Shown here piece after piece: positions 1,144-61,371 of a stretch of DNA of 64,000 nt. Position 1 is the stretch's first letter, and every line of letters begins with the position of its first letter. A program made the translations under genes and the position numbers. This DNA comes from Isurus oxyrinchus (Eukaryota), in assembly GCA_026770705.1 (NCBI GenBank), contig JANJGN010000034.1, forward strand, positions 4,898,001 through 4,962,000, given 5' to 3'. The notes beneath the pieces are model-generated. The model was not told where the DNA came from, did no database searches, and was given only the letters and a program-made list of their open reading frames with translations.

Positions 1144-1170
1144 CTGATGATATTAAAATCAGAGAAGAAA
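1144..1170 (+). CDS. Micro-exon 1 (27 nt, phase 1-1) of unidentified micro-exon gene; (x)DDIKIREE
   Basis: ttttatcttctcag|CTGATGATATTAAAATCAGAGAAGAAA|gtaagt. Confidence 0.8.
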
Positions 1171-1319
1171 GTAAGTATTCAGCCGAAAACCTAATTGTTC
1201 AAGAATACGTGTATATTTTGAAATAATTATCAGACTGTTTTTTTTTTTACATTTTAACAAGGAAGAGCCCTAATTATTGTTTCTTTTTCATTTAATATAT
1301 TTTTTTTCTTTTCCATCAG

Positions 1320-1346
1320 AACTGAAGAAATGTCTGGACGTGCTCA
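1320..1346 (+). CDS. Micro-exon 2 (27 nt); (K)LKKCLDVL
   Basis: long pyrimidine tract, ccatcag|AACTGAAGAAATGTCTGGACGTGCTCA|gtgagt. Confidence 0.8.
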
Positions 1347-2849
1347 GTGAGTACTTTTTGCAGAGATATATGTGTTCCCTTTTACATTACTCGAGCACAT
1401 TTTTCCCTGCACATATGTTGTGAATGAAGTAATTAAATGCAAGGCTAGAACATCAGATTATTTTAAATTTAGATATACACAAGGAATTGTGAGCAGATAA
1501 GCTCTTAAAGGCCTTTTGGGGATTCCAACTCACTCTATGTTAGCAAAGCAAAACAATGGATTTCGATATGGCCGACCATTATATGCAAATTTACAATGAG
1601 AACTTTTAACAATATAGCGAGCAAAAAACCCTTAGAGACTGCTGTGGAGCAATATAATCTAAGCTTTTAGAGAACAGCACATAACGCTATATTAAAGAAG
1701 CTGAGCAACACTTTTGTCAAAGAGCATTTAAAGAGAATTTAATAGGATGGATAACAGGCAGAAATACAAAGACCACAAACATGATAACATCAGCGCTTGA
1801 GGGCAAAAGAATTGAAGACATTCAACAATTGGGCAGTGAGATAAGGATTATTATGGAGCCAGAACTGGATGAGTGAACGTAACAGTGACAGAAAGTGGGT
1901 CATCATTTTGTTTCAGCATAAGATTTTGGCACATAAAATTTGTGGAATATTAACATTTAACGGTGAATTATTTGCCCCTGCTGACCTGCTGGTCTGCCTA
2001 AAAAGAAAATGAAATACAGAGGTAGCATGGATGCAGTAGGGGTGTTGAGCAGTGTTGTGCACGTGTATGGGAGGGTGGGTGGGGGGGGGGGGGGGGGGCT
2101 GGGGGGGAGTGGGTGCTGCAGGCGGTGGAAGGCAGGGTGTGAAGCTTTGCTGAAGAATGCCGAGCTCACTGGCGATTTCATGTGAAGTTGAGCAGCAGTG
2201 ACAGGGCTATTGAACTTCAGCTACTTTCTGCACAGCAATCTGTGTTTTATGCTTACTGAATGAGCAATCCCGTTCCATACGAGTAAATGCATTGGCCAAT
2301 ATTGAAGAAAACAATTAAATGAATTTTACCGGCATAAGAGGTCTCCTATAAATGCGATTTGTCTTGCCACTCATTAGGCCATCCAGAAAAGAATGTAAAT
2401 TTTAAAGTGGGCAAACTTTCGGACTGCACAAGGGAAGGGTGCTTTAGATGGGAAGTAATCAATGATTTGCAGGTGTGTTGCCATGGACGATCCACAAGGT
2501 AACTGCTAACATTTGCTTAAAATCGAACGAGTCATGTCAGTTTTGTTTGGTCAAGGCATTACTACTGGGAAAGAACAAGGGAATGGAAGTCACCAAAGTT
2601 CTGGTTTAATTGATAAAAGACGCAATGCAATTTCTGATTGCAATGAAGTGGGCCATGTATAAGCATATATGGAGCTTTTAATGTGCGTAAGTGAACTACA
2701 CTGTGAGCCCTAGTGATAACCGTAAGTTGCTGGTTAGTGTAAGTCTTATCACAAACAGCATTATTTAATAGGTGCTGCACGTCGCAGAAGCAAATCTAAT
2801 GCTGGACAGCATATTTGACTTTTCCAAGCATGTGTTTTTTTGGGTATGG

Positions 2850-3289
2850 TCACCATTTTGCCTATTGTGAACAGTCAAAGGGAAATGTTGTTTGATATAA
2901 TTCATCTTGGGCCCTAAAATACATAATATATGCTAGTTAATATGATATCTGCCGTCGGGAAATGCTGGGACATGTAAAGGAATATTCTGGTATGTTCAAA
3001 CAAAGAACATGTCGTTTTATGAAAGGAAATTTTGTTTGGCAGAATCATTATGATTACATTTTATGTTCGGACTGGTAAAATAAAGGGAAATAAGTAGATT
3101 TCGCCTTTCTGGGCTTCATAACTGGATTATTTAACGTGCCACAAAAAAGCTCCAAATACAAGATAAAGGCTGGTGGAGTTAACAGACAAGTAAAACGGTG
3201 TATCCACAAAACAGCATCTTACACTTCCCGTTCTACAATCAATGAAGTCTAAGTGAATACAGTGCTGAGGCAAACTGACAGTTTATTTA
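2850..3289 (+). mobile_element. Highly decayed CR1-like LINE RT fragment
   Basis: Residual similarity to CR1 ORF2 (gttttatgaaaggaaattttgtttg..., aagataaaggctggtggag); no ORF. Confidence 0.4.
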
Positions 3290-7759: not shown

Positions 7760-7880
7760 ATGGAAAAACTCAGCAGGTCTTGCAGCATCGGCGGTGAAGA
7801 AAAGAGTTGACGTTTCGAATCCTCATGACCCTTCAACAGAACTAGATGTTTTGGATTTCTAGCAACTGCGGTTTTTGTTA
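7760..7880 (-). repeat. Penelope terminal fragment with hammerhead-like motif
   Basis: Reverse complement of the 53120-53220 Penelope end. Confidence 0.7.
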
Positions 7881-20066: not shown

Positions 20067-20099
20067 CTAATTGCGATCATCCAATTGATGAGAGCAACT
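20067..20099 (+). CDS. Micro-exon 3 (33 nt); (T)NCDHPIDESN
   Basis: tttttctcttcag|CTAATTGC...GAGCAACT|gtaata; weaker donor, frame-preserving. Confidence 0.55.
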
Positions 20100-20393: not shown

Positions 20394-20441
20394 TCAGTCC
20401 GAAAACAAAATTCTGTCAGAAGTTATATCCGATGGAATTTT
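20394..20441 (+). CDS. Micro-exon 4 (48 nt); (F)SPKTKFCQKLYPMEF
   Basis: tgttctttcccag|TCAGTCC...GGAATTTT|gtaagt. Confidence 0.7.
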
Positions 20442-20826: not shown

Positions 20827-20829
<3 letters not shown>

Positions 20830-20875
<46 letters not shown>

Positions 20876-21082: not shown

Positions 21083-21118
21083 TGATAGAACATGTGGTGA
21101 AGAATCGTCGTAGCCTGG
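21083..21118 (+). CDS. Micro-exon 5 (36 nt); (L)IEHVVKNRRSL
   Basis: ttctgttttaacag|TGATAG...GCCTGG|gtaagg. Confidence 0.75.
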
Positions 21119-21827: not shown

Positions 21828-21854
21828 AAAAACAAATCAAACAGAAAGAGAACG
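21828..21854 (+). CDS. Micro-exon 6 (27 nt); (E)KQIKQKEN
   Basis: ccattttcag|AAAAACAAATCAAACAGAAAGAGAACG|gtaaat. Confidence 0.75.
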
Positions 21855-21970
21855 GTAAATCATATTGCTCAGTAACTGTAAGTTGGATTGTTGGACGAAA
21901 TGGTACGCCTTCTGTAAGTTTTTTTAGGTTGAGTGATTCTAAACTTGTGTTAAATTGACATTTATTTCAG

Positions 21971-21997
21971 AATTAATGGGTTACGTGATCACAAGAG
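21971..21997 (+). CDS. Micro-exon 7 (27 nt); (E)LMGYVITR
   Basis: tttatttcag|AATTAATGGGTTACGTGATCACAAGAG|gttagt. Confidence 0.75.
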
Positions 21998-23309: not shown

Positions 23310-23690
23310 GCTATCTATCTATTGATCTATTTAACTAATTATTAATCCACCACCTACCAATCCACCAATACATCTATCCAACTACCTACGTATGTATATA
23401 TGTATGGATTTATCTAACTATCTATCTGTCTGTCTATGTGTCTATCCAGTACCCAACTAACCATGGAACCATTCATCCTTCTATCTTTCTATTCCCCTTC
23501 TATCTATCTNNNNNNNNNNNNNNNNNNNNNNNNNNNNNNNNNNNNNNNNNNNNNNNNNNNNNNNNNNNNNNNNNNNNNNNNNNNNNNNNNNNNNNNNNNN
23601 NNNNNNNNNNNNNNNNNNNNNNNNNNNNNNNNNNNNNNNNNNNNNNNNNNNNNNNNNNNNNNNNNNNNNNNNNNNNTATCTATCTACTTA
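23310..23690. repeat. Degenerate (CTAT)n-rich simple repeat containing an assembly gap (N at 23510-23676)
   Basis: ctatctat units on both sides of 167 Ns. Confidence 0.85.
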
Positions 23691-27200: not shown

Positions 27201-28354
27201 TTCACACAGATTCAATGTAATAATAGATAGTCCCGCAACAAAACAATTTAAGCATTAAACAGGTAATCCACAGTTGCCTGCAGCAATAGAATGATGGCAT
27301 CAAACTTCAAAGACCATGATTAAATGATGTTGTCAATAATGTCCCTTTAATAGGATAAATAAATTCTATTTTTGCGGTTGCCATGATATTCCCCCTGATA
27401 AGTCAACAGGATTCAATCCTTTTGAACTGATATCTGGGCGTAGATTGAGAGGAGACCCTAAAGTTGTTAACAAAAATGTTACAAACAATGCCTTGAGAGC
27501 ACATTTGACCTATGTGCCCAAAGTCCTTGAAATGATAACCCAGGTATATGTGCTGGACAAAAACATTGGAATATTGCTCAACAAACAATAGAGGCTAAAA
27601 AAGATTAAAACGGCCACAGCTCGAAATTCTATTGCCCGATCACTGCCAGAAGTTCGGAAATGTGGCGAGCCAGCCAAAGGTTGTATGACATCAGCAAGAT
27701 TGGAAGAACACGCTGGCGAGAGGAGATGTAACATTCCAGGTCTATTGTTACCTGTCTCTGATAAAAAGTTCAAAGCGAAATGCACAGGCCCTTATCAAAT
27801 CAACAAGAAACTTAATTGAGAAAATGATATATTCAGTGCACCAAGCAGAAGGAAATTAAGCATGTGTATCACGTTAACATGTTGGAGCGATGATATAAGA
27901 TGGAAGTTAGCCAGCACAGGCGTGTGGTTACAATATGGAATGAATTAGGGAGTGAAATTATAGAACCAGGGAGATTGGAAAATTAATAAGGAGTCGAATA
28001 TTCTGAAATTCACCCTCCAGTGATCTGATTGGATAATACGGAGATGTTCAAACATATAGATGCAATATTGTGCGAAATTCCACAAACGTGTTGAGGTGGC
28101 TTACAAACGCAATTACAAACTCTTCAGTCGACTTGCGCAAATCGGCCAGGGGCAAACAATTTGGAAATAAATGATGCTTATGTAGGGAATGTATCAATGA
28201 AGGAATAATTCCTTTAGAGGTAAATTTCAAGTGTAGAGCATGTGTGAGGGAAGGGATCACGTTCATCACTTAAAATATGCATTACTCCGAGCAGATTGAG
28301 TTCAATTATTACAATGCTACCAAAAGCAGATTTGTAACAAAATATTTTGATATG

Positions 28355-29150
28355 AAAGCAAAATACTACAGGCACAGCAAATATGAAATACAGACATGAA
28401 GTGTTGGGAAAAAAATATTACTCCACAGTTTCGACGTCATCTGTGGAGAGCGAAACAGAGTTAACGTTTTGAGTCTGCATGACTGTTCTTAAGATCAAAG
28501 GACAAGTAAGCAATGCGATGGGCTTTAAAGTGCTAAAGAAGGGGGGGAGCTGATGAAGCAAGCACCAAGGTCATAAATAAGTGGGTGTACAGAGAGATTG
28601 GCTATAGCTAAGATGCCATCGAAAAAAAATGGAGTACGAATGGCAGTGGTAAGTTCTAAATATGTTTCTGATGGTGCCAGAATGTGTTAATCGCAGAACA
28701 AACGTGAGTGTTCCGTGAAAGCCCAGCAGAGAATCAAATGACACATCACGTGGAGGGGGGATGGAGGTTTTGACTGAAAATTATTAATAATTATGAGTAA
28801 ATGAATGAATATAAATAAAGTATTAATTAAGAAAAATAATTATAGCAATTGAAATAACAATAAAAGAACAAAGGAGTAGAAATAGAGGAAAGATTTCATG
28901 GTCCTAAGTTGTTGAAATCTATGTTAAGTATGAAAGGCTTGAAAGGATGACATCGGGCCATGGCTGGTGAGGAGGATGGAGATAAAGAGGCAGTTTTCGC
29001 AAATTCTGTGATTTCCTGGAAGGTGGCAAAGGATGGGGGAAGGATTTGGCAAGAAAGGGGGCTGAGTGTGCTGTTGACTATGGTGTGATGGAGTAACTGG
29101 TCCATGCAGAACTCTTACAGATGTGCTGTGGGGAGTTGTGTTTGGTGGCA
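28355..29150 (-). mobile_element. Penelope-like 3' fragment inserted in Gypsy RT (copy 1)
   Basis: tgtggagagcgaaacagagttaacgttt terminus; minus-strand LNIDFNNL similar to the end of 51012-53250. Confidence 0.7.
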
Positions 29151-31129
29151 TCATGCAAATTCAATACAGTGACAAAAAGTGGATCCATGAACAATTCAAA
29201 GATTTGAAGCTTCTATTGAAAACAATGAACAAGCAAGTTTTGTTACAATCATTAATCATTCAAATGTTATCGGTAGGTTCCTTCGACTGATTTGCACAAA
29301 TGTGTATCAGCTTTCATAACATGAATGGGCATTCTCACTGTAAGTAAAAGCCATTCGGAATGAAGAATGTAACAGCGACTTCTCCAACATGAATAACTAA
29401 TGTCATTGAAGGAGCATGTATCTGTGTCGCACATTCAACATTTGAACAAATTGCTGGAGCAGCTGCAAAGTGCCAATTTTGCTTAAAAAATGGCAAAAAC
29501 TGATTTTGCCCAGGCAAAAGTAAGTTAGTTGTACGACAATGTAGGACAAAGCCAAGTAACCCCGAGAGATTCAAAAATGAGAAAAAAAATGTTCTTTGAT
29601 TTACCACCGTCTAAAATATAATGAGAGGTTTTATGGCATTTACACGCTTTGAAATGCATCTGGAGCTCCTTTTTGAAAAATGTCTCCATTTTAATGCCTC
29701 TCTTGAAGACCTTGTTAAATAAAGGAAATGTATTTGAATGACAGAGGAGTGTCAAATTACCTTTGACAGCTTGGGTGCTCTGCTGACGACTGTATGGACA
29801 TCAGAAGCACCTAATCATGCTAAGGCATTTGAACTGGCTGTTGATGCCAGAAAAGTAGGTATTGGGCACTATTATTACAGGAGGACACGAAAAGGATCGA
29901 ACAGCCTATCAATTACTTTTCTCACAAGGTCAATCCTTGTCAGAATACAGATGCAACTGCGGGGAAAAAATTGAGCCCGGTGTTGGCTCTATAGCTGGTT
30001 GATCTGTATATTCAAAAGCTCTGCAGAGAATCATTTCTACGCACAACAATCCTGTAACATATTTTTAGAAAATTTTAATATCTAGAAGCTGAGAATGTTT
30101 CGTTGGGGTTTACTTCTGCAACAAGGTAATTAGAAAATTAATCATGGAATTGGAAGGGGCAATACAATACCTCATGTGTTATCAAGTGCAAGTGTGGAGG
30201 AACATGAATGTCATCATCAACATTGACTTTTGTGGGCTATATGGGCATGGGTTGAGAGGAGGGTTAAATTTGTTAATAAAAATGTTACAAACCAAGCCTA
30301 TAGACCTCATATTTGATTAAGGTTAACCAGGTTGTTGAGCAGCGCAAACAACAGTTGAATATCACCCAACAAATAATGGAGGCTAAAAGAGATTAAAAAG
30401 ACCAAAACTGGGTATTCTATCGCACCTTCGTTGCGGGACGTGCTGAAATGTGGTAAGCCAGCCCAAGGTCCTTTGACATTCGTAGAACAGTGAGGCGGGA
30501 GGGGCCGTAAAACTCTACATGTTACCTGTCTCTGGTGAAACGTTCAAAGCGAGATTCACTTGCTTTATCAAAGCAACAGGAAACTAAATGAGCTAAATTG
30601 TACAGTCAGTGCTCCAGGCAGCAGGAAAGTGAGCGTGTGTATCACTTAACGTGTTGGACCAATATTATGACTCGGAGGATGGCCAGCACAGGCGTTTGTT
30701 CACAATATGAAATGAACTGCGCAGTGAACATACAATATCAGGGAGATTCGTGAACGAATCAGGAGTCGAATATTCTGATGTTCACACGCCAGTGACCAGA
30801 TTGAAAAATAGCCAGATGTTTTAAAATTTAGATGCAATTTCGTGTGACTTCCAATAATGGGTTGAGATGGCTTACAAGCGCAATTACCAACTCTTCAGCT
30901 CACTTGCCCAAATCAGCCAGTGGCAACATATTTGGCAATAAATGATGCAAATGTAGTGAATGTGTCACCCATAAAACAAAATCCTTGCAGGCTAACTTCC
31001 AGGGAATGATCATGTATGGTGGAAAAGCGCAACATCATGATCGAAAATATACATTAATCAAACGAGTCCGAGGAGATGGAGCTCATCTATTGCAATGTGA
31101 CCAAAACCAGATTTGTAACAATATTTATT

Positions 31130-32200: not shown

Positions 32201-33447
32201 ACAAACTCCATGCGGTGATAAAGGTGGATTCATACCCAGATTCAAGAATTGAAGCCTCTATTGAAAACAATGGAATGCGTTGCTTATTAAAATAATTGAA
32301 TCAATAAAGTGTTATTGCCAGGTGCTTTGACTAATTTGCATACAGGCGTGCGAGCAGTCATAACGTGTATGGACATTCTCATTGCAATTAAAGGCCTTTT
32401 AGAATGAAGAATGCAACAGCAACTTCTTCAACATGAACCAATGATGTCATTGAGCGAACATGCACCTGTGTCACATTTTCAAAATTTGTACAAATTGCTT
32501 GAACAGCTGCGAAGAGCCAATTTGCTCATAAAATTGGCGAAAAATGAATTCGCAGATGTGAAAGTACCTTAATTGTTCAACTACGTGGGACAAACCAAAG
32601 TAGCCTCGAGAGAATCAAAAATTAAGATCTGCTTTGATTTACCACCGCCTAAGACATAATGAGAGGCTTTATAGCATGTATGCAAGTTTGAAATTCATCC
32701 GGAGCTCCTTTTTGCAGAATTTCACCATTTTAGTTGATCTGATGAAGATCTTGTTGAATGAAGGAAATATATTTGAATGGACAGAGGAGTGTCAAATTAG
32801 CTTTGACAGCTTGGGAGCTCTGCTGACGACTGCACCGGCATCAGAAACACCAAACTATGCTAAGCAATTTGAACTGGCAGTTGATGCCAGAAATGCAGCT
32901 GTTGGGCAGTATTATTACAGGAGGACACAATTGCGATGGAATGGCCCATCAGTTTCTTTGCTGGAAAGCTAAATTGTTCGCTGCAGAGATACGCAACTGG
33001 GGGAAAAATAATTTTGAGTTCCGTGTTCTCTCTACAGCATTTAGAACTTAATATTCAACAGCTCTTCAGATACTCATATTTCTACGCCAACAATCCTCTA
33101 ACATGCTTTTTAGCAAACTTTAATATCAAAAACCTGAGAATGTTTTATTAGAGTTTAATGCTGCAACAAGGTAATTTGAAAATTAATCATGTAATGGGAA
33201 GGGGCAATAGAATAGCTGATGCGTTAAAAAGTACAAATATGATGGGTCATGAATGTCATGTTAAATGTTGACTTGTGTGGGATATAGGTATGTTAGATTA
33301 CTATCCAGTTGATGTAAACATATTGCTACTACCAGCGGAAAAAGAGCATTAGTAAAATGGAAATAGTGAAGACAGGAGATTGAAGTAGTAAAGAGCAATG
33401 CCTCTTAAAAGTATCTTTTCTTGTTTTTCTTTTCTGCTGGGCGATAT

Positions 33448-34322
33448 TGTAAAAAATGTATAACATTCCATTTAATTTATATGTGCAAAGAACGGCAAGA
33501 GCAACATGGTATTAGCTTGATTTATATATATATATATATTACTTGCCCTGAGCTGGATGTCGAGACGTCTAAGGCCCTGTTCTCATGAATATACTCTTAG
33601 TGTGGTTTCTCATTTTGTTGTGACGAGATGGCTGATAAAAGTGTTACTAGTGACGCGAATTTAGTGAAAAAATCATACTATTGACAAAAAATAGCGTTGT
33701 TGACTGGTGTGTCAATTGTGCAGGCTCACGCAGGGCCACAGGGGAATGATGCTGGGCAGTCACTATCTGTCTACTACAGAGTGAAAGCAGAAACTCTCAG
33801 CTGTCTAGTAAGAAGCCTGTCATGACTTCTGAGAGCTCACTTTGAGTAAAATATGTGGGTGCTCTGAGCGGAAACAGTGGGGACGTTAGATTCTGGGCTT
33901 TCAGGGGGGTGTCACGGCCAGACTTTGCGGCTGATTGAAATTGTCCCATTAAATACTCAGAAATGGGCTGGGAAGGAAATAAATACTCTGCCAGGCCAAG
34001 CAAGAGGCCGTAGTGTTATGGTACAGTTAAATTCTCGGTGCGGTTTGTGTTCGTAAGAGCACTGTTGCGGTAAAATGTGTGATATGAGTTTGAGTCTTAT
34101 TGCAGGTGTTCGGACTGATATCTTTCCGAACTTCCTGTCGAGTATAATGTAATTCATTTCTTCCTGCTTAACAAAGATGTAGAAAGTACACTGTCGGGCT
34201 CTGGTGAATATGTTCAGGAACTGACCTCCAGAGATTCTAGAAAAAAAAAGTTTGGGTCTATCAAACCAGGTTTCACCCTGGCATCTGACTTACGCAGTAT
34301 TAACATCAGCTGGGATCGTATG
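33448..34322 (+). repeat. Putative 3' LTR of Gypsy element
   Basis: 34200-34320 aligns loosely with 24050-24180; 5' boundary uncertain. Confidence 0.5.
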
Positions 34323-35054: not shown

Positions 35055-35081
35055 CAATTGGACGCAACGAAGCTTCGACGG
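35055..35081 (+). CDS. Micro-exon 8 (27 nt); (A)IGRNEAST
   Basis: tttttattttacag|CAATTGGACGCAACGAAGCTTCGACGG|gtaagc. Confidence 0.75.
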
Positions 35082-38004: not shown

Positions 38005-38040
38005 AGTTGGATACACTAAAAATGAACCTGAATATCTCAA
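38005..38040 (+). CDS. Micro-exon 9 (36 nt); (E)LDTLKMNLNIS
   Basis: tttcttgtttcag|AGTTGG...ATCTCAA|gtgagt. Confidence 0.78.
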
Positions 38041-39254: not shown

Positions 39255-39281
39255 ATGTTGAGCACGACATTAAATCAGCCG
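39255..39281 (+). CDS. Micro-exon 10 (27 nt); (N)VEHDIKSA
   Basis: ttttgcctttgaacag|ATGTTGAGCACGACATTAAATCAGCCG|gtaagt. Confidence 0.8.
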
Positions 39282-39502
39282 GTAAGTTAAAAAAAAAGAA
39301 CTATGGACATTTGCATAGATGATGTTGCTTATTTTGTTACTAGAAAAAAAATATATTAGCCCTAATTTAGCCTGCGCAAGTTCAGGCACATTTTTAAACT
39401 AATTTCCAACTAGCGACCGGAACAGACATTATATCTTAAGTTGAAAAACACTTTACAACTTTCACGTAAAGTAATTATGTGACCTGTTTTTATTTTATGC
39501 AG

Positions 39503-39529
39503 AACTGAATAATTGCAAGAAGGTTTTTG
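39503..39529 (+). CDS. Micro-exon 11 (27 nt); (E)LNNCKKVF
   Basis: tattttatgcag|AACTGAATAATTGCAAGAAGGTTTTTG|gtgagt; resembles exon 2. Confidence 0.8.
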
Positions 39530-46824: not shown

Positions 46825-46851
46825 TTCTGATGCATTTCAAAATGAATGCAG
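46825..46851 (+). CDS. Micro-exon 12 (27 nt); (V)LMHFKMNA
   Basis: catatttttag|TTCTGATGCATTTCAAAATGAATGCAG|gtaaat. Confidence 0.7.
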
Positions 46852-47685: not shown

Positions 47686-47712
47686 AAAATGCACTGAATC
47701 AAATGAATGCAG
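47686..47712 (+). CDS. Micro-exon 13 (27 nt); (E)NALNQMNA
   Basis: ttcctttattttcag|AAAATGCACTGAATCAAATGAATGCAG|gttagt; shares 3' AAATGAATGCAG with exon 12. Confidence 0.75.
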
Positions 47713-48659: not shown

Positions 48660-48680
48660 TTCCAAAATTACCTCGCACTG
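48660..48680 (+). CDS. Micro-exon 14 (21 nt); (V)PKLPRT
   Basis: tttgttttttag|TTCCAAAATTACCTCGCACTG|gtaaga. Confidence 0.7.
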
Positions 48681-51011
48681 GTAAGAATTTCATGCAATGG
48701 CACTTTTTTATGTCAGGGTGCTGATCCTGTAGATTCCCGTTTGCGACCAATCATAATATACAAACTCACCAGAATTATTACAATCCATGGTAGAAATATC
48801 TGGAGGTTGTAATATTAGACGAACAGCATTATTTTGCTCGTCATACCAAAAAAATTGGACAGTGCTATGGAGCGATTGGGGAATCAGAGAATGCCCTACT
48901 AGAGAAGAAAAATGTTAAAACGGGCTTAATGAAGACATTTGTCGTTATGAGTAGTTTACTGGAGATAATTTGCTGTCCTTGGTAAATTATACATTGGCGA
49001 TAATTCATCGATTTAAGGTATTTGTAAAAATACCTGGGGGAAGTGAAAATAACTTCCCCAGACTGGAAGCTGTTAGTTACTTGAATTCGCAGTCAGGAAA
49101 TATTGTTGAGTAGGATTGATCTTAAAGACAATTACACCAAGCCCTGAAGGCAGTGAATTTCCCGGGCTCAGGGACATAAAATGTGGTCATGCTGCAAAGA
49201 AGCAATCATGAAGAACGCGATTGTGCTATTTTGAGCAACTTCAGAACATTCCCTAAAATCGCATGCATAGTTTACAATGCATAGACAAGGCAACAGTCAT
49301 ACACACACAAAAAATGATTCCAGGTAATTCGAATCTTGTTCTTCAACACACTGCTTCAAATCACCCGCTAATTTTACAATTGTCTTCATAAAAGATTGTT
49401 CAAATTATTTGCATTCAGTTTAACTCTCGAAAAGTATATAGGTACATCACATGGCTGCAAAATGATTTGCATAGGGAGGGAGAATGCATTCCTAATGCAT
49501 TTTGGTTATCTCCCGAACTCAAAACTGCCTTCTGTGGACAAATTGATTCTGAACCCAGTCGCTAATCTCTTACGATCGATCATTTTTTTCTTATTTAAAT
49601 TAAACTGTGAAAAGTTTTTTACGTGAAGTATTATGTGTTGGAATGAAATTTACGATGTTAGTTGAATCCTGGGAAGGCGTCCGTTGGGGGCGGGGGGATT
49701 TGAAGAGACATATAAAAGTGCATAGTGCTACATAACATTTCGGACACAGGAAAAACGATTCGGCCTATCGAGTCACTCCTTGCATCGAAGGTTCTCTCCT
49801 TTCATGCGTCATACTTCCTCGCCTACACATATAATTATAATCATATTCTGTTTTCCCTGGGAAATTTACGTATATTGTCTTTAAATGCATACATGTTATT
49901 CCATTAGTCTGGTACCTATGGGAGCTTCTTCCACATTCATAAAAGTGTATCTTAAACTACATTTTCTCAGAATTCCATGTTAGTTTTATTGGTGTCATTG
50001 TTATACGTTTGACATCTCGTCTTGTTCTTCACCAGAATGGAAAAATCCTCTTTGAATTCTTTGCAGCAAGATCCACATGTTCTTTAAAACTCCACTAGAT
50101 CATCCCTTAGACAGACAGTGAATATGGGAAGGAGGGAGATAAAAAAAATGTTTCATTTTTTTCCCTGAAGCATTTACCAAGCTTCTCAAGTATCTTCTGT
50201 TATCCCTCGCCAATGTGTTGATTACAGAATTGTTTAAAGTTAACAGCTGCTGTTACGCTCATGTCTGTTATCTGAATGAATAACGGGACTGTTGATATTC
50301 GACCCCATTCCCCATCATCATCTCATGTATTATTCTATGAAAAAAATATACGTTCATACAAATGAACATGCGATTTAGGAGGAGAGTAGGCCAGAAGGCA
50401 CCTCGAGCATGCTGCGAAATTCGACAAGATTACTGTTGATCTGATGGTGGCTTCAACTCCTCATTTATTCTACACTTGACACCATCAATTCACTTATTGG
50501 TCAATCATCTATTCATCCCTACGTTAACCAAAATTGAATCAGTCTCTGCTGATAACGTGAAGAGTATTCCAATGATTTACGAAAATCTTGGATAGCAAAA
50601 AATATTGTCTTCTCCATCATGAATGGGAGGCCCATTATTTTCAAACTAAGAGTCTTATTTCAAGACTCTCCAACAAGGAGACATCACCATTCAATACCCA
50701 TTCTGTCATGTCCCTTCAGTGTATTTTATGTTTCAATGGCGTCACGTCTCAATCGTCTAATTCCGATGTGCACTTTCTCCAAGGGCAGTAGTGTCAATTT
50801 CTCAAAACTACCTACTTATTTCAAGTTCATGGTCACAGTATAAATTCACTGATTTTTTGCTTCTCTCCTCCTAATGTCTTGATATCTTGCACAAAGTTGC
50901 CGACTAGAACTGGACACAATACTCCAGTTAAGGAGAAAACCGTGTATTTAACGATTTTTCCATAACCACCTTAAGCGTGTAGTTTGTGTGCCTTTGAATG
51001 CAACATAGGTT

Positions 51012-53250
51012 TCTCCTACCTATCCCTGGACCATGACGCCACTGCTGAACATCAAGCCACTTTTTCCATGACTATCACTGACCTCATCTCCTCAAGAAAT
51101 CTTCGTTCCACAGCTTCCAAACTAAGAGTTGCCCAACCTCGGATGGCCCGCTTCTATCTCCTACCCAAAATCCACAAAGAGAATTGCCCCAGTGGACAGT
51201 TCATGTCAGCATGCACCTGTCCCACTGAACTCATTTCTCGTTATCTTGACTCCTTTCTCTCTCCCCTTGTCCAGTCCCTTCCCACCTACATCCTTAGTTC
51301 CTCTGACACCTTACGTCACATCAACAATTTCCAGTTCCCTAGCCCCAAATGCTTCCACTTCACCATGGACGTACAATGCCTCTACATCTCCATCCCCCAG
51401 CAGGATGGTATGAGGGCCCTTAGCTTCTTCATCGAACAGAGGCCCGAACCATTCCCATCCAGCACTACTCTCCTCCATCTGGCTGAACTTGTTCTCAAAC
51501 TGAACACTTTCTCTTTCAACTCCTCTCAGTTTCTCCAAATAAAAGGTGTGGTATGGTTACCCGCATGGGCCCCAGCTGTACCTGCCTCTTCAATCGGTAT
51601 GTGGAAAATTCCTTGGACCAGTGCTACTCCAGCCCCCTTCCACAACTCTTTATCTGGTACATCGATGATTACTTTGTTGCTGCTTCATGCTCTCATCGAG
51701 ACCTGCAAAAATCTAATAATTTTGCTTCCAATCTCCACCCATCCAACATTTTCACATGGTCCATCTCTGACATTTTTCTTCCCTTCCTTGATCTCTCTGT
51801 CTCAATTTCTGGTGATAGACTGTCCACCAATATCTATTACAAGCCTACCGACTCCCACAGCTACCTCAACTACAGGTCCGCTCATCCCGCTTCCTTTAAG
51901 GACTCCATCCGATTCTCTCAATACCTTCGCCTCCATCGCATCTGTTCTGATGATGATAACTTCAATAACAGTTCCACTGACATGCCCTACTCTTACTCAA
52001 CAGAGATTTTCCACCCACGGTCATTGACATTGTCCTCCTTCGTGTCCAGACCATCTCCCGCACATCCACCCTTATGTATTCTCCTCCCTCCCAGAAACAT
52101 GATAGGGTCCCCCTTGTCCTCACTTATCACCCCAACAGCTTCGACATTCAAAGGACCATCCTTTGCCATTTCGGCCAACTCAAGCATGATGCCTCAACCA
52201 AACACATCTTCCCTTCCCCCCCCCACCCCCCATGGCGGCATTCCGTAGGGATCATTACATCCAGGACACCCTGGTCCACTCATCCATTACCCCCTATTCC
52301 TCAAAACCACCTGTGCCACCACCCCATGCACACTCAAAAGATGCAACACCTGCCCCTTCACTTCCTCTGTCCTCAGCGTCCAAGGGCCCCAACTCTCCTT
52401 TCAAGTGAAGCAACATTTCAGTTGTATTTCCCCCAAATTAGTCTACTGCATTTGTTGCTCCCAATGTAGTGTCCTCTACATTGGAGAGACCAAACGTAAA
52501 CTGGGCGACCACTTTGCGTAACACCAGTGGTTTGTCCACAAGAATGACACAAACCTCCCTGTTGCTTGCCATTTTAACACTCCACACTGCTCTCTTGTCC
52601 ACATGCCTGTGCTTGGCTTGCTGCATTGTTCCACTGAAGCCCAAAGTAAGGTGAAGGAACAGAACCTCGTCTTCTGACTTGGCACTTTGCAGCCTTCTGT
52701 ACTGAATATTGATTTCAACAACTTTAGGTCTTGAATTCACTCCTCCATTCCAATCCCCTTTCTATTTCTTCACCCTTCCCTTTTTTACTAATCATTTATA
52801 TGGATTTTCCTTTCCCACGTATGTCTATTATTTTTAAAAATGTTATGCACTGCTAGTCTTCCACCCAACCTCCACTAGAGTTGTTCCTTGAGTCCCCTAC
52901 CATCTATTCTTAATTAGCACATTCGTTCTGATAACATCACCACCTTCAACAACTCTGTGTTCTTTTGTTCTTTTGTCTGTGACTTCTTTTGATTATCTGC
53001 TCCTATCACTGCTTGCTTGTCACTACAACCACACCACCCCCACCCCCACTTCTCTCCCCCCACACAACCTCCCCTCCACCTTAAACCAGCTTATATTGCA
53101 CCCCTCTCCTTATATTCACTCAGTTCTGTTGAAGTGTCATGAGCACTAGAAACATCAACTCTTTTCTTCTCCACCGATGCTGCCAGACCTGCTGAGTTTT
53201 TCTAGGTAATTCTGTTGTTGGTTTGGATTTCCAGCATCTGCAGTTTGTTG
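51012..53250 (+). mobile_element. Penelope-like retroelement, 5'-truncated (RT + GIY-YIG), frameshifted; inserted in an older minus-strand LINE
   Basis: RFYLLPKIHK, FTMDVQCLY, MGPS, WYIDDY, FLDLSV, IYYKPTDSHSYL; VYCICCSQCSVLYIGETKRKLGDHF. Confidence 0.92.
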
Positions 53251-55139
53251 TTATCATAGTTTTTTCCGTGACTCATGAACCACCCTTCTAAGATCTCTTG
53301 CCATATTCAATGACTTATGCACCAGTTCAACCAGGTCCCTCTGCTCAATCGGAGTTCTGCACTTTATTTTACGTGATGTGTCACTTTACGCAATTATTAC
53401 TAAATCGATCACAACTTTTCTTTTTTTTGCTTTCTGCTTCGGATTTCATCTGCCACTTGTCCGTCCATTCTACCAGCTGGCCAATGCCATCCTATACTAT
53501 CATGCTGAGAGTTCGCAATTATTTCATGTTTGATATCACACCTAGATTTGGTAAATGCTTCCTGTAATCCAAGCTGTAATCCACTAAGATATTTCAATTA
53601 AACAATATTTCCCAACACCAGCCGCTATGAATCTAATCGGCCAAATTTCCTCCATTCCTAAAAATAATACATTAACCACTGCTCTCTGTTTTTTGGTGAT
53701 CGAACTATTTACAATACTTATTGTTGATGCCTGCAGCATTCCCTGAGTTATAGATTTGTTCTCAATTGTGTTCTGAAATACTGCCATCTGATACATTTTG
53801 GAAAGTTTTATAAACCCTCTCTTGCCACGTCAAAGTCAGTCGAACAATTTGACTCAAGGCGATTTGTTTTTGATTTTAAACATCCATTCTGTTTTTTTTT
53901 TCTTTTTTTTTTCTTTTTGATTCATTACTCCACTTTCCCCTGAGGTCTAGTTAATTTTCCAACATTACTGTTTGTGATAGCTACTCGACGAGGCACTTAA
54001 GCTGCCAGCTTCTTATTTATCATATTTAACTTTGCACAGTTATTGAACAGATGTGTAATAATTTCAATTATCCGGTTGTCTGGCGCTACCCTGAGTCTGA
54101 GGAATAGTGGAAAGTAATAGCCACCGCCTCCAAAATTAATAGTCCCACAACCTACAGTTAGCTTGAATGCATTTCATCCAGTCGCGGTGCATAGTCATCT
54201 TTGCATAAAGGCACCCTCTTGAGTAACTTCTCTTTAACAGCTTTTTAATAACTTCGACTGTATGATTTGCCTCCTCTTTCAGCATGTCCTTGAATGAATA
54301 CTCTTCCTTGGAATGGCGGTTACAGGGAAAAAACCCTTTATAATATCACCTCCGAAACTTCAAATGTCATGCTATCTGCGGTCTAAGCACTTTTCGATAT
54401 GGGACAAGATCTTATTGGTATCTTTAAACTGTATTCCTATAGACAAAACAGTTGTTTGTTTTTTAAATGGAAGTGTTAGCCACTCACACTGCCTGAGGGA
54501 TAATTAAAATCTAGAACTTCGACTCATGGTTTCCTGCTCATCTAAGCTCGCTACGTTCAAGTAACTTGTGCGTTTCATGTTGTTTTTTTGCCAAAATATA
54601 AAACATTTAATATAACCGTACTGTTTCCCATTTTAAATTTATTGGTCTGTTTGCTATTCCTACACTGAATTGTTATATTACTTCCAATGTCGACTCTCCG
54701 TTTGCCAGTTCCATGACATCCACCTTCCCAATCCATTTTTGGAGCAAATGTTTAATCATCCGTTTTGAGTCAACTGCCAGTGTAACTTTTTTTTTTTCAT
54801 TCGTCCATGCTATGTGTTGGTAAGCTGCTTTCTTGAACCGCTAAAGTCCATGTGGTGTAGGTAAACCCATCTGTTAGTTGCAAAGTCCTAGTGTGATTCA
54901 CCCTTACATTTAAACAGATTTCAATCTCTTGTCGAGTGTATATGCTGTTATCCGTGCAACCAGAGACTTGTGCATTTAAAGTTATAAAACAAGCACATAA
55001 AGTTTAATAAGGCTCAGCAGCTATTTACATGTTAGACGTTAGAAGCTTTCAACGCAACTCATCTCTATTAGAGACATCAATTCTATGATTACTTTGAAGA
55101 TTTGCACTTTCCTAAAGTCGTGTAATTTTTGAATTTCAG

Positions 55140-55169
55140 GCAAAAAGTCGTGTTCTTTTCTGGAAGCAG
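55140..55169 (+). CDS. Micro-exon 15 (30 nt); (G)KKSCSFLEA
   Basis: tttttgaatttcag|GCAAAAAG...GGAAGCAG|gtaact. Confidence 0.65.
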
Positions 55170-55599
55170 GTAACTAACGTTAACTTTGGCTTTTCAATAG
55201 GATTTACTGGCTACGATGATAATTGTTGGACACATGACAACAAGCAAAAGGCCTCCTATGGCTGCCAAGTCATTGGGAATGGGTCCTCATCTTAACTCTA
55301 TAACAATCGAATTGAGGCCCTAAAAAACGGACCATTTGCTGTGGAAGAGTGCATTGATCAATCCATGCATCAATCCATGCACTAAATAGTTGTTTTATGT
55401 AGAATTACATCAATGCAAAATTATTTTTTATATTCAGAGACCAAATGTAAAGTTTCACTGTGTTAACTTAATTGCACTGGGAACGATGTAAACACCAAAT
55501 ATTATGTTGCTGAGGCTTTTCAGGAAAATAACTAATACTGTCTTTCAGAAATAACATTATCAGGTGATCGATAGGGGAAGGCGCGCCCTGACATACATC

Positions 55600-56575
55600 T
55601 AACCTAATAACGTAAGAGCAGGAGTAGGCAATTGAGCCCAGCGAGCCTGCTCTGCCATGCATTACGAGTGTGACTGACCTACTTTCGGCCTCAACTCAAA
55701 TTTCCTGCCCTCTCCCTACAACCTTTCAACCCATTATTTATTAAAAATCTGTCTATCTCCTCATTAAATTTATTCATCAGACCAGCATCCACTGCTTTCT
55801 GAGGTATTGAATTCCATACATTCACGACCCTTTGAGAAAAGTAATTTCTCCTCATTTCTGATTTAAATCTACCACTCCGTAGACAAAAACTATGGCCTCT
55901 AGGTCTAAAATGCACCAGCAGTGGAAACATCCCCTCCACGTCAACTTTGTCTGTTCTGTTTAGCATCTTATATACCTCAATTAGATCTTCTCTTATTCTT
56001 CTAAACTCTAGCGAATATAGACGTAAAGTGCTCAACCTCTCCTCATAAGACTCGCCCCACAACGCTAGACTCAATCTGATGAACCTCGTCTGAACCGCCT
56101 CCAGTGTAACTACATAATGCCTCAAGTAAGGATACCAAAACTGTGCACAGTACTCCAGGTGCGGTCTCACCAATGCCTTCTACAGATGCAACAACACTTC
56201 CCTATTTCCATACTCTATTCCTTTAGGCAAAAAATGGCAACATTCCATTTGCCTTTCTTATTACCTGCTGTACCTGTATACTAGGTGCCAGCGATTCATG
56301 CCCTAGGACAGCCAGATCCCCCTGCATTGAAGCATTCTGTTTTTTTCTCTCCTTTTAAATAATAAGACACCCTTTTATCCTTCTGATCAAAGTGGGTACC
56401 CTCACATTTATCCACGTTAAACTCCACACACCAATTTTTGGACCATTCACCTTACCTCTCCATATCCATTTGCAAATTTCTTGTTTCTTCATTACAAGTT
56501 ACTTTCCCACCTATTTTGCTGCCATCTGCAAAAGCAGCTTTAGTACAATCTATCCATGAATCCAAGTCATCCATA
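55600..56575 (-). mobile_element. CR1-like LINE 3' fragment
   Basis: ORF 55691..56173 VRPHLEYCAQFW...LYSLEFRRIREDLIEVYK...FSQRVVNVWNS. Confidence 0.92.
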
Positions 56576-57335
56576 GGGGTTGTGTATAATGACGGAAACA
56601 ATGATAATGCACGACCCTATTTTAAAGAATAATGTACGAAATTTCTTGGGAATTTGCTAATATTCTCTAAGACAATAGTTATCTTCTTCAGTGCTTGGTA
56701 GTACATTGCTGCCTTTTGGAAAAAGCCAGAGTATTTCGCTGTCACCTCTCTTTGTTTTTAAAAGAAAACAATTGCAATTTAACTGACGTCAGATGGTTTA
56801 CAAGTCCATTTAAGATTCAGGATTGCTACTTTATTGTGTCAGTTTCCTTACTAAGTTTCACACTCGTAATAAAACCAGTTTTATCCGAGTTAGCAGTGTA
56901 CTGTCCACACATTTGACGTTGTGCATCAACCATACGGCAAATCTTTTTTTTTTTTCCATTTTGCCCTCTCTATTCCAGACATACAATTATTGAATAAAAC
57001 CATCCGGGGACATGGTGAGTAGCAATTGCATGAGATCACTATCCGTTTTATGAAATAGAAAATGAACATGTTTCCCAATGCAGATACGAAATATGTCATA
57101 TTGATTAGATTTTTTGACCTTGACGTGCAATGCACAATAGATTTAAGATCTCATCCATTGTCACGCATGTAACGTATCATTCTGCACAGGGACAAGCCTT
57201 ATGACAAAAAAGAACGGTAAGCATTAGACTTTCAAAGCACATGGACGTTTTTACGTCAAGAGAAGTCGCTTATATTTGTAAAATATAATTCCAAATCATG
57301 TAGAATAACATTGCAACTCACTGTATTAATTTCAG

Positions 57336-57362
57336 AACTGAGGAAATTTGAAATTCATGTAG
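57336..57362 (+). CDS. Micro-exon 16 (27 nt); (E)LRKFEIHV
   Basis: taatttcag|AACTGAGGAAATTTGAAATTCATGTAG|gtaagt; begins AACTGA like exons 2 and 11. Confidence 0.78.
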
Positions 57363-58263: not shown

Positions 58264-58294
<31 letters not shown>

Positions 58295-60343
58295 ATCGCT
58301 CAGTTCACTGGCTATGTCAATGACATGCTACTTTCACATTTACTTTCTCGATTGGTGCATGGATTTCGGATGAAAGCAACATTCAAAAACACTTTCTGCC
58401 CTAGTTTTGCGTGTGCCATGCTGATCAACTATCATGGTGAATAAGTTCAGATGTAAGAAATTGATATCAAGGCATGTTGTGTGTTTTGGTAAAAGAATTG
58501 TCGATATGACTGTGGAAGTTAATCTACTTCCCTGCTCACCACCAATAATTCATTACTCTCTTGCAGCAGGCAGGTTTATTTAATTAAGACATAAAAGTAT
58601 TCAATTACAAACCATCCACTGGTCAGCGGGAGATCATTTCATCTACTACGAGCCAACCGAAAGTCAAGTTCCTCCTCACCTTTGCCTTAAGTGGGAGAGA
58701 CCCTATTTGTAAATCGAGTCTCGTGTGTTTCCTCACCAAATAAGCTGAAAATCCGACGGGCATTAGTAAATGTAATGATTAGACAAGAGTTCGTTCTCCG
58801 CTGGACATACAAAACAGGTTATTACCCTTTGGTTTACAAACCTTAGCAATTTTTAACATCAACAACTAAGGAAAAACAAAAAGGAGAAAACTTTTGTACT
58901 AATCATTATTCCTGAATTGTAGATTTGCTTATCCCTTGTATTCGTTGTTCTCACCCATGTAATCTTCATGTCTGATTACCATTGTGTAGCTGCATGCGTG
59001 GTCTTCAAAGAGTGTAGCCTTTATGGTTAAGAACTAGCCTCCAAGTGAATTTCCGAGTTGCAGAGCTGTTGATTCTGAAACAGTGCAATTATCACAATGT
59101 TTGTTCAACTTTATCTTGCCTTGGTCTTGTTAGTGGAATTAAAGACGCCTTCAATATCACCCTGTTGTCATTTATACAGGAGAGTTCATGGAAAAAGGCC
59201 TTGCCCAGTTGATGAATTTCATTGTGCAATGTTTCAATGACGAAACAATGAGAAAAAATATTTTAAAGCGATACCCAATTCGCTCCACTGCCATCCTAGA
59301 TTTCCAGAGCCATTGACATATTTACATTTCAATGTCCTTTCGAAGTTTATTGCTGGTTCAACTTTGACCGCAGGTCTAGGCAGTGTACATCTCCGAGAGA
59401 GAAGGGCCTTTGCAATCAAGGTTAAGAATGCATATTGGCTTCAATCATGAACAGGTCATTCAGCCTTCGAATCAGATATCCCATTGCATCGTTATTAGGT
59501 CAATTCGCTGTTTTTGTTCTTCAAATGACTATAAAATTCTTAACTGAACTTTACTATTAAATATGCATTAGTAAAATATGAGGCAGCAAATTCTGAATAC
59601 AAGCCAAGCATTGCTTGAATTTCACTATTTCCTCATCTTGCTGTTGAACTTCCGTGCACATTTTTAAATCTGTACATAATGCCCGGGGATCCTTCAGCGA
59701 TATGAAACCATTTGTTTATCAAAAACGCTTCATGATTTTTATAAACACTTTGATTAGTTCTCCTTCTAGTCTTCTCTGCTACACAAATGAAAACACGATT
59801 GGTGGTCAATCCAGGGGAGTGTAAGCTCCCAAATTTCCTTCAGGTCTAGCAAATATAAATCGCATTATGATTATATCTTTATTTTGTTCCTAACGTCATT
59901 ATGCCTTGAGCGTAATGGGCAAAATTTTATGTCGGCGGGATCTTAAAGTATAAATCTCAATGGACTTAAAATATGGTGCAGTAAAATTCCACCAATATAG
60001 AATCTGAGTTCGAACTGTTCTTAAATATGTTTCCCAATACTTGCACACCATTTAAAAAGGGTGAAATAGATCTTCTCTCCCCATCCTTCTGCCTGAAACG
60101 GTTTATTTCTCGTTTTTTCCTGCTTTAATTTTCAACTGCCATATACCAATTCCACCATGCTCCTTATAGTATCTTGAAGAATAGTAATAACGACAGTCTG
60201 TTTATAACACTTCCATTTTTTTCCTTTCATATGCAAATGAAATGTCGTGCTTGGCCAAAAACCGTAACAACAAGGCCTCTTGGAGCAGCTTTTTTTAAAC
60301 TTGCATTCACTTAAAAAAAAATAGCCTTCCAATCGAACTTTCA

Positions 60344-60965
60344 GGGCAGAATTTAGCCCATGGTTGTGAGCGGGCCCCATTGCTGTAATGTTGACCTGGG
60401 CCATTTTGAAGGGAAGGACCATAATTGGCCCTCAACGCAGCCTGCGCGACTGTGTGGGGGTGGGGTGGCTGGGTGGTGGGGTGGTGGTAGAGGGAATCCC
60501 CAACTGTTGAAAGAGCGCGCTGCTCCATGAAGCACAGTGCTGAGTTTACTGACAGGTAAGTAAAGTCAGAGAAATTAGAAAATTATTGGCATGGCCCTCC
60601 CGTGTGATAATATTGGAAGAGATGGGACATGTTTTAAGAAACGCAAAAAAAACATATTTTATGTAATAATTACATGAAACTTCATCCGCCAGTGGATGAA
60701 TTTTCATGAATAATCTCGCTTCCCCTGGAGATCCTGACCTGCCCGTCAGCATTAATCCTTGACAGTCAGGGTGTCTAAAAACGTCAATGGGCTTAATTGG
60801 CGATTTGCAGGCCAGCGGGTGGACAGCTAATTTAGTTGTCCGCCGGCTTCCCTGAAGATTTAAATGGACGGGCTGATATCGGGGCGTTCCTGATGTCATC
60901 CACCGTCATTTTCCCATCGGCGAGCAGGCCTTGTCCCCAAATCACCGTGCAGAAAATCCTGGCCA
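60344..60965. mobile_element. Putative non-autonomous DNA transposon (MITE-like)
   Basis: Imperfect terminal inverted ends gggcagaattt / gaaaatcctggcc; GC-richer interior without ORF. Confidence 0.5.
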
Positions 60966-61344
60966 GTCTTCTATTTAATAGCCAATTTTGAATCCATGCG
61001 TTTACAGCGTTTTGTTTGTGCCCTGGTCTCCAGTTTTCCAAACAAGCCAAATCTGCAGTGCTTTATTAAAAGTGCACGTACACATGATGAAATACACCAA
61101 CGAGAGGGAAAAAAAATATCGTGTTAGTTCAACATGACTTTCGCTAAACAATAACTCATTTCTGACAGCTGCATGCAAATTCCAGTTTTTTTTGACTCTT
61201 CATTATTAACGATAAAAAAATTACGAGCATTATTTTTCTATCCATCGCGAACTATTTGTAAAATCAATTAAAGTATTTTAGAGATTTAAAATACCTGATG
61301 GTAATCTTGACAGTAAATGACCCATTTACATTTGACGTTGACAG

Positions 61345-61371
61345 AAAGGCAAATCAGTGCAACAAACAAAG
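61345..61371 (+). CDS. Micro-exon 17 (27 nt); (E)RQISATNK
   Basis: tttgacgttgacag|AAAGGCAAATCAGTGCAACAAACAAAG|gtattt; resembles exon 6. Confidence 0.6.

Follow-up and report, generated by a model that had tools for sequence, protein, structure and literature searches.

Micro-exons in a 64-kb window of the Isurus oxyrinchus genome probably belong to a megabase-scale gene for a predicted coiled-coil rod with a terminal B30.2 domain

The stretch of the Isurus oxyrinchus genome analyzed here, called the window throughout, comprises 64,000 nucleotides (nt) at positions 4,898,001–4,962,000 of contig JANJGN010000034.1 (C34; assembly GCA_026770705.1, genome of ~5 Gb), and its initial annotation described a hidden gene of 17 short, splice-bounded segments. 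Our analysis showed that these segments are almost certainly coding exons, and that they belong, with high probability, to the same transcription unit as an exon at 6.396 Mb encoding a B30.2 (PRY-SPRY) domain; this unit is designated gene B. Our moderately favored reading is that the segments are exons from the N-terminal part of gene B, which would span ~1.54 Mb and encode a coiled-coil rod of as many as ~4,000 residues, exported from the cell, stapled by cysteines, and tipped by a B30.2/SPRY domain, serving as an extracellular tether or cross-linker. The window makes up 4% of such a gene, within its N-terminal section, and the scale first suggested was thus about 25-fold too small. The 5′ part predicted to lie upstream of the window gained support, with array exons and a 111-nt exon found there.

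A de novo splice-segment scan over the whole window recovered 17/17 segments at the sizes first reported, each with AG and GT flanks (Table 1). The total of 501 nt was borne out (eleven segments of 27 nt and one each of 21, 30, 33, and 48 nt, plus two of 36 nt). All segments carry the GT donor ascribed to them, that of exon 3 being weak (−2.1; others 1.1 to 7.4). Phase 1, proposed as the sole frame open throughout, is open in 17/17 segments, and the joined segments contain 16, 0, and 11 stops in frames 0, 1, and 2. The stops named in phase 0 (exons 2, 11, and 16) and phase 2 (exon 1) are present, and phase 0 is additionally closed in exons 5, 7, 9, 12, and 13. The joined peptide proposed earlier was incomplete, since two good exons had been overlooked.

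The comparison with the opposite strand and with shuffled sequence, proposed together with the initial annotation, came out in its favor. Scored with a generic splice matrix of assumed frequencies, candidates of 21, 27, or 36 nt numbered 13 on the plus strand and 1 on the minus strand, while 60 windows simulated with a local second-order Markov model averaged 0.9 and never exceeded 4; for 27-nt candidates alone, the values were 8 and 0, with a simulated mean of 0.35 and maximum of 3. When all lengths of 15–60 nt were pooled, no enrichment was observed (27 against a simulated mean of 16 and maximum of 27), and the signal is therefore specific to 21, 27, and 36 nt. At a slightly looser cut-off, the window held 15 plus-strand candidates of these key lengths, with stops in frames 0/1/2 of 9/0/7. 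The same frame bias was obtained, using generic splice scores only, in the 240-kb block around the window (29/1/24 stops among 45 candidates), in the neighboring gene A (82/4/55 of 122), and in samples from the gaps of gene B (29/0/33 of 53); it was absent at other lengths. The strands were also unbalanced, with 45 plus-strand and 4 minus-strand candidates in the 240-kb block and, with a cross-validated exon model over 1.464 Mb, 356 calls on the plus strand versus 21 on the minus strand. Exons with GC donors do not form a large hidden class, with 7 on the plus strand and 6 on the minus strand. Thus, with the strand, frame, and chance controls passed, the feature in the window is real and looks coding.

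Beyond the window, we read 1.264 Mb around it as one gap-free stretch, 200 kb at 6.31–6.51 Mb, and 198 kb at 3.99–4.19 Mb, together with 40 samples of 9.8 kb, of which 20 lay across the unread middle of gene B and 20 in other genes. The micro-exon array occupies nearly all of the DNA read, except for gaps between genes. Counting signed positions from the window start, the array exons of gene B begin at −29,226, following the B30.2 exon of gene A (81 kb upstream of the window) and the 111-nt exon of gene B. Three sections follow one another: an N-terminal one that holds the window, composed of 36/27-nt exons with occasional proline-containing exons and much longer than its counterpart in gene A; a second, from +193 to +407 kb, in which 29 of the 34 calls are 21-nt exons; and a long 36/27-nt stretch that leads to the B30.2 exon. 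Exons of 21 nt also make up 32/41 calls in the start of gene A. Plus-strand exons were present in 20/20 samples across the unread 748 kb of gene B (69 on the plus strand, 3 on the minus strand), and the 150 B30.2 candidates scored, out of 283, included no further exon in the interval 4.817–6.396 Mb. In the 993 kb of gene B that were read (64%), calls exceeded other-strand decoys by 229, which extrapolates to a total of ~418 exons (383–461 over six thresholds; 353–486 by bootstrap of the 20 samples) and a predicted product of ~4,000 residues; the model behind this count was trained partly on the same DNA, with the gap samples outside its training.

A cluster of 4.8 Mb holds gene B and four similar genes, each with an array closed by a B30.2/SPRY exon. 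A genome search for B30.2, in which 150 of 283 candidates were scored, placed the four closest paralogs of the gene A exon on the same contig, at 2.71 and 3.47 Mb (minus strand) and at 6.40 and 7.50 Mb (plus strand), with 40–58% identity. In 18/20 samples from the other genes, array exons lay on the same strand as the next B30.2 exon downstream, the remaining two samples having none, and in gene A exon calls exceeded opposite-strand decoys by 215 in the 701 kb read. Gene C aligns at ~78% to the upstream gap of gene B and then jumps straight to the 21-nt section of B, without the 240 kb that hold the 111-nt exon and the window. The possibility that this block is a separate inserted gene was rejected: it opens, as gene A does, with the 111-nt exon followed by homologous array exons, and a deletion in gene C is the simpler account.

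The closest PDB sequence match of the B30.2 domain of gene B is BTN3A1 (4n7i, E = 8e-20), with TRIM58 close behind (4e-19), and a fold search ranked TRIM7 first. The B30.2 exons are under purifying selection, with nonsynonymous/synonymous distances (dN/dS) of 0.31/0.94 between A and B and 0.043/0.095 between B and C. Relatives with one B30.2 domain were found in Chiloscyllium, Leucoraja, Scyliorhinus, Callorhinchus, Narcine, Cetorhinus, and Hemiscyllium; their source names are TRIM39-, TRIM58-, TRIM69-, A33-, or butyrophilin-like, and the automatic TRIM-like names likely rest on the B30.2 domain. In a midpoint-rooted tree of 33 rows, the five B30.2 domains of C34 and 9 database proteins formed one clade (support 100/99), the named members of which are all from cartilaginous fish. 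The 20 mostly unlabeled outgroups were taken from 150 listed proteins and one fell inside the clade; with no labeled BTN rows outside it, the tree speaks to a separate clade only. RefSeq isoform models generally rest on RNA evidence, and those of the relatives differ by blocks of 6, 9, and 12 residues, equal to 18-, 27-, and 36-nt exons, which makes the frame-preserving length variation proposed at the outset plausible. The skate protein XP_055510696.1 (295 residues) has a hydrophobic N-terminus, two long predicted helices (residues 17–57 and 67–105), and a B30.2 sandwich, at a mean predicted local distance difference test score of 73; two of its segments match array exons of gene A.

As judged from the exon sequences, the predicted rod is constrained in length, frame, and core and hardly so in its surface residues, and its exons are born and die. 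Positions 1, 4, 8, and 11 are hydrophobic in 89, 91, 73, and 44% of the 36-nt exons (n = 150) and in 100, 88, 69, and 50% of those in the window's block (n = 16). Of the 27-nt exons (n = 195), 73% have a hydrophobic residue at position 3 and 57% a lysine at position 6; of the 21-nt exons (n = 79), 89% have a hydrophobic residue at position 1 and 35% a cysteine at position 4. These residue frequencies are to be read with the fact that the exon-picking model itself favors such residues at exon ends, and the a/d heptad labels are our own assignment. Nearly all cysteines in the 21- and 36-nt exons (93/94) fall at core positions, and disulfides formed by cysteine at position d of a parallel two-chain coil are well tolerated. 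With the junction residues included, a 36-nt and a 27-nt exon together give three heptads and a 21-nt exon gives one; in one regular zone of gene A, 36- and 27-nt exons alternate in 51/63 neighbor pairs. Duplicated exons remained intact in length, frame, and both splice sites in 29/43 pairs, which are not independent, versus 477/1,613 control segments. A dN/dS of 0.073/0.324 for the B–C micro-exons was dropped as biased, being derived from 9/21 candidates picked at an identity of at least 75%.

Upstream of the array, genes A and B share the 111-nt exon (70% identical) and the first array exons in order, and a DNA search found these two copies of the 111-nt exon only. The exon opens with a hydrophobic run kept in both genes and resembles the second half of the signal-peptide-like N-terminus of skate XP_055510696.1, residues 10–11 of which line up, as read by eye, with the exon start. 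In gene A, a start candidate at C34:3,981,461, 24 kb upstream of the 111-nt exon, has an ATG with nine codons, hydrophobic for the most part, before a phase-1 donor; its length is what the first half of a split leader should have. The leaders were assessed by hydropathy: the peak over 11 residues was 3.05 for the A candidate and 2.93 for the skate protein, and the values over 19 residues were 2.06 for the A candidate leader, 1.48 for the skate protein, and 1.33 for the B candidate. Two further candidates were rejected, namely a 30-nt segment at −45,275, which has the look of a leader exon but no in-frame start that we could find, and one at −57,937, whose start and donor are lost in gene C, as fits decay or chance.

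The immunoglobulin V (IgV) and transmembrane exons expected upstream by the initial annotation were not found in the 5′ gaps, where a split leader is likely instead. The whole interval from the B30.2 exon of gene A to the first array exon of gene B was read, and on the A side coverage extended to 25 kb upstream of its 111-nt exon. Ig, RING, and B-box domains were absent from all 97 open frames of at least 75 amino acids in the gaps 5′ of genes A and B, with frames truncated at locus borders, and from 6/6 family proteins scanned, which showed only SPRY or PRY. There was no convincing match to the Ig motif in 1.264 Mb, and no transmembrane-like exon (phase 1, 60–150 nt, 19-residue hydropathy of at least 1.9, good splice sites) in 1.86 Mb of the plus strand. 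Of the 37 matches to the BTN-type IgC domain (C2-set_3, all 110 candidates scored), none fell in C34:2.7–7.5 Mb; they cluster on another contig, C21. A genome search with the V-set domain, in which 150 of 3,319 candidates were scored, was uninformative.

On the favored reading, one transcript would join the leader exons to a chosen set of micro-exons and then to the B30.2 exon. The exon sizes would act as register units, 21 nt for one heptad, 36 + 27 nt for three, and 27 + 27 nt for an 18-residue heptad-plus-hendecad, and exons could thus be duplicated, lost, or skipped without breaking the frame and mostly without breaking the coil. The product would then enter the secretory pathway, which we consider probable, and disulfides at the core cysteines would lock two parallel chains together; a parallel, disulfide-linked dimer appears somewhat probable. 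A coiled coil rises 0.15 nm per residue, and a full-length chain would accordingly reach ~0.6 μm, with a pair of B30.2 heads at its end. The predicted role is to tether or cross-link over long distances outside the cell, with splicing setting the length of the rod. Such a protein would have evolved from a butyrophilin-type tail of heptads plus B30.2 through loss of the Ig and transmembrane exons, which would leave it outside the cell. Of the BTN/BG-like helical tail first proposed, the phase-1 helical-rod exons and a probable kinship with BTN through the terminal B30.2 domain gained support, while a cytoplasmic tail behind IgV and transmembrane domains did not. The complete picture, in which a single 1.54-Mb unit with more than 400 exons, the largest of five cluster genes, encodes a secreted, disulfide-stapled ~0.6-μm fiber with B30.2 heads, a BTN-type tail turned inside out whose reach is tuned by skipping, is put forward only tentatively.

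Several observations weigh against an exported giant rod, and some of them suit an exon reservoir, in which transcripts would skip nearly all micro-exons to give proteins of a few hundred residues, or the array would be split into several units, with no giant protein. The family proteins recovered are short (129–460 residues), and weak searches spanning 299–2,000 and 806–2,300 residues found no longer relatives. The identity of duplicated exons is flat over the three codon positions (0.785/0.764/0.750), exons being 75% and their blocks 74% identical, and dN/dS in a young duplication of gene A is 0.093/0.122, with 2/10 pairs left out after loss of the donor; the rod residues are therefore weakly constrained. 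Several duplicated copies have lost the GT donor, so that some exon copies are not live. Gene C lacks the 111-nt exon yet has open exons and an intact B30.2 domain, which a one-gene-one-signal picture does not explain. In addition, 36% of gene B is unread, and the exon total is thus an extrapolation with room for an unseen gene end other than a B30.2 exon. The splice junctions are predicted from genomic sequence. No RNA data set was listed for the last exon of gene B. Of 11 sequencing runs listed, four were mapped to the last 10 kb of gene B, and even intron coverage at ~90–95% identity in three of them indicates that these are DNA of a relative; the fourth, presumed to be RNA, gave zero depth on the B30.2 coding part and is uninformative on expression. 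Nevertheless, phase-1 stops are nearly absent over hundreds of exons, old diverged ones included, from which it follows that most exons are translated at least at times, and the register-keeping alternation of 36- and 27-nt exons matters only when neighbors are joined. A cluster of SPRY proteins in the Atlas with a 1,579-residue representative (score 0.84) is a lead in the same direction, and we regard the exon reservoir as unlikely. Decay or chance is extremely improbable as the source of the segments: the greater irregularity of the window's section relative to the rest would suit pseudo-exons, but the single phase-1 stop and the strand imbalance in the 240-kb block would not.

The remaining doubts concern the location of the product. 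The start exon of gene B is ambiguous, since a loose filter passed 10 ATG-plus-donor candidates in the gap upstream of B and 12 in the corresponding gap of gene C, similar counts that imply that such candidates arise by chance, and a hydrophobic N-terminus was seen in only 2/6 database relatives checked. Both points, along with the position of B30.2 after the transmembrane region in butyrophilins and at the end of most TRIM proteins, as given in the accessible text of PMC8813856, would suit a cytoplasmic product of the same gene, a RING-less and Ig-less coiled-coil–B30.2 scaffold on the cytoskeleton or on intracellular ligands, comparable to chicken zipper protein or to the intracellular part of a butyrophilin. 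This is rather unlikely in view of the hydrophobic run kept in A and B, the skate-like hydropathy peak of the A start candidate, and the core-only cysteines, which fit disulfide stapling; the four relatives without a hydrophobic N-terminus may moreover be 5′-incomplete models. The initially proposed type I membrane protein of butyrophilin/BG type, with IgV and transmembrane exons upstream and the array as cytoplasmic tail, has in its favor the 21-nt heptad exons with a split first codon, which occur in BG genes according to the portion of PMC5938342 consulted, and BTN3A1 as the closest solved B30.2 by sequence. It is very unlikely, given that neither an Ig domain nor a transmembrane-like exon lies between the B30.2 exon of the previous gene and the first array exon, that the six family proteins lack Ig and RING, and that BTN-type IgC exons lie on C21. 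A type II membrane protein, whose uncleaved hydrophobic anchor would hold the rod and B30.2 head on the cell surface, would fit the 19-residue hydropathy of the A candidate leader, but the skate protein and the B candidate fall below a membrane span over that length, and this topology is highly improbable.

As far as sequence features go, the C34 genes encode heptads in a BG/butyrophilin-like manner but, where searched, lack the Ig and transmembrane domains of BTN and BG proteins and the RING and B-box domains of TRIM proteins. The accessible text on chicken BG genes (PMC5938342; PMC8813856) describes a similar long heptad coiled coil spread over numerous tiny exons whose first codon is split, exons of 21 nt, and variation in copy number and splicing; BG proteins differ in having IgV and transmembrane domains and 27–37 tail exons of 21 nt, without B30.2. 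In the C34 genes, by contrast, no Ig or transmembrane domain was found, the exons are hundreds in number, mostly of 27 or 36 nt, with a 21-nt tail in one section only, and B30.2 is terminal. Butyrophilins such as human BTN3A1 share a phase-1 heptad region before a single-exon C-terminal B30.2 (PRY-SPRY) domain, but have an IgV-IgC-transmembrane architecture, few heptads, and an intracellular B30.2, and BTN-type exons of this shark lie on another contig. TRIM proteins (TRIM39, TRIM58, TRIM69, and "A33-like") share the coiled coil and PRY-SPRY, whereas the C34 family has no RING or B-box where scanned. By description only, gene B can also be likened to enterophilins, cytoplasmic mammalian proteins with many heptads and B30.2 but without Ig, and to vespryns, which are secreted B30.2 domains without a rod. 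An unrelated yardstick is titin (connectin), whose giant modular gene has hundreds of exons and adjusts product length by exon skipping according to the accessible text of PMC6279932 and PMC12241362: human TTN has 364 exons, more than any other mammalian gene (PMC6279932), in 293 kb (PMC6279932; PMC12241362), and elephant shark connectin has 300 exons (PMC12241362) in 238 kb (PMC6279932; PMC12241362). Gene B has an estimated ~418 exons in 1.54 Mb versus 364 in 293 kb for TTN.

No description of the C34 family was found in the literature searched, subscription papers being mostly outside that search. According to the accessible text of PMC12841164, cartilaginous fish have butyrophilins and the number of heptads varies in squamates; nothing there resembles this family. 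An "A33-like" protein of shark skin mucus, a 55-kDa entry in the portion of PMC10707392 consulted, was considered and not used, as no link to the family was established. New are the cluster of five genes, the size of 1.54 Mb together with a number of exons that approaches or exceeds that of titin, and the case for export over an intracellular tail. Hidden in shark genomes are several Mb of a gene family that seems to survive annotation only as short "TRIM-like" stubs, probably because aligner seeds are longer than its exons. Should gene B be spliced as a single unit, it would rival or pass titin in exon number while being built almost wholly of micro-exons, and would offer a natural test case for a spliceosome faced with hundreds of 21–36-nt exons and for the gain and loss of exons under a rule of structural register. 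If the product is exported, the usual butyrophilin/TRIM topology would be reversed, with an unknown extracellular fiber or long-reach binder in cartilaginous fish.

Table 1. Micro-exons of the window (window positions) and genes and exons of the cluster (contig positions); scores are acceptor/donor splice scores, locus-trained where indicated.
Feature	Position	Strand	Score	Remarks
Micro-exon 1, 27 nt	1144–1170	+	6.0/5.8	Phase 1 open
Micro-exon 2, 27 nt	1320–1346	+	10.8/1.1	Phase-0 stop
Micro-exon 3, 33 nt	20067–20099	+	5.7/−2.1	Proline-containing; weak donor; least certain of the 17
Exon 4, 48 nt	20394–20441	+	7.4/1.7	Proline-containing, likely hinge; all three frames open
Micro-exon 5, 36 nt	21083–21118	+	5.4/3.7	Only phase 1 open
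Micro-exon 6, 27 nt	21828–21854	+	6.0/3.1	
Micro-exon 7, 27 nt	21971–21997	+	1.5/3.6	
Micro-exon 8, 27 nt	35055–35081	+	7.9/4.8	
Micro-exon 9, 36 nt	38005–38040	+	2.0/5.1	
Micro-exon 10, 27 nt	39255–39281	+	5.5/6.4	
Micro-exon 11, 27 nt	39503–39529	+	7.9/4.4	Only phase 1 open
Micro-exon 12, 27 nt	46825–46851	+	1.4/5.8	
Micro-exon 13, 27 nt	47686–47712	+	7.6/4.6	
Micro-exon 14, 21 nt	48660–48680	+	4.1/5.2	Proline-containing, likely hinge
Micro-exon 15, 30 nt	55140–55169	+	3.8/4.9	
Micro-exon, 36 nt	56979–57014	+	8.3/5.8	Overlooked earlier; stops in the other two frames
Micro-exon, 27 nt	57190–57216	+	2.9/4.5	Overlooked earlier; completes a 36-27-27 group
Micro-exon 16, 27 nt	57336–57362	+	1.8/7.4	Only phase 1 open
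Micro-exon 17, 27 nt	61345–61371	+	2.2/2.8	
Possible exon, 15 nt	55549–55563	+	6.1/4.7 (locus-trained)	Uncertain
Candidate, 15 nt	63809–63823			Uncertain
Candidate, 27 nt	34177–34203			Uncertain
Genes D1 and D2	B30.2 exons at 2.71 and 3.47 Mb	−		
Gene A	C34 ~4.0–4.82 Mb	+		
Gene B	C34 ~4.86–6.40 Mb	+		Contains the window
111-nt 5′ exon, gene B	C34:4,859,457–4,859,567 (−38,543)	+		
Terminal B30.2 exon, gene B	C34:6,395,819–6,396,339	+		
Gene C	C34 ~6.46–7.50 Mb	+		

Within the window, four close pairs of 27-nt exons (1144–1346, 21828–21997, 39255–39529, and 57190–57362) have starts 143–248 nt apart, the other spacings being 0.2–19 kb; such pairs recur along gene B and may be spliced as units. 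Exons of 15 nt recur in the 3′ half of gene B. A run of 167 N at 23510–23676 could cover an exon.

Other variation was observed among the cluster genes. The B30.2 domain of gene C is 92% identical to that of gene B, and their synonymous distance of 0.095, far below the 22% divergence of the 5′ blocks, hints at gene conversion. In the three runs of a relative's DNA, the 3′ end of gene B occurs in two forms, ~95% and ~90% identical, which are probably the B and C copies of that species. A 7.45-kb tandem duplication in gene A (C34:4,625,475–4,640,371; 99.2% identity), which repeats two exons, is very recent or an assembly artifact. At C34:5.90–6.17 Mb, sets of the same exons, slightly altered, return about every 110 kb, which points to large tandem duplications within gene B. 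On C21, at 82–118 Mb, most of the 150 best SPRY matches form a very large group of B30.2 exons with BTN-type IgC exons interspersed, likely the TRIM/butyrophilin cluster of this genome.

Several repeats lie between the micro-exons of the window. Old local duplications of ~1.3–1.5 kb with 74–77% identity occupy 27431–33286, inside a 13-kb intron. At 50975–53257, a repeat-element remnant contains long open frames that resemble retrotransposon reverse transcriptase, with no Pfam match; judging by its motifs, we take it to be Penelope-like. Several copies, ~70–83% identical, occur in the region, together with a related 720-codon frame on the minus strand at +487.5 to +489.7 kb. A 21-nt exon candidate at 51530 falls within this remnant and was rejected as false. 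On the minus strand at 55694–56179, between two micro-exons, a 162-codon frame without a Pfam match resembles the end of a long interspersed nuclear element (LINE) reverse transcriptase.

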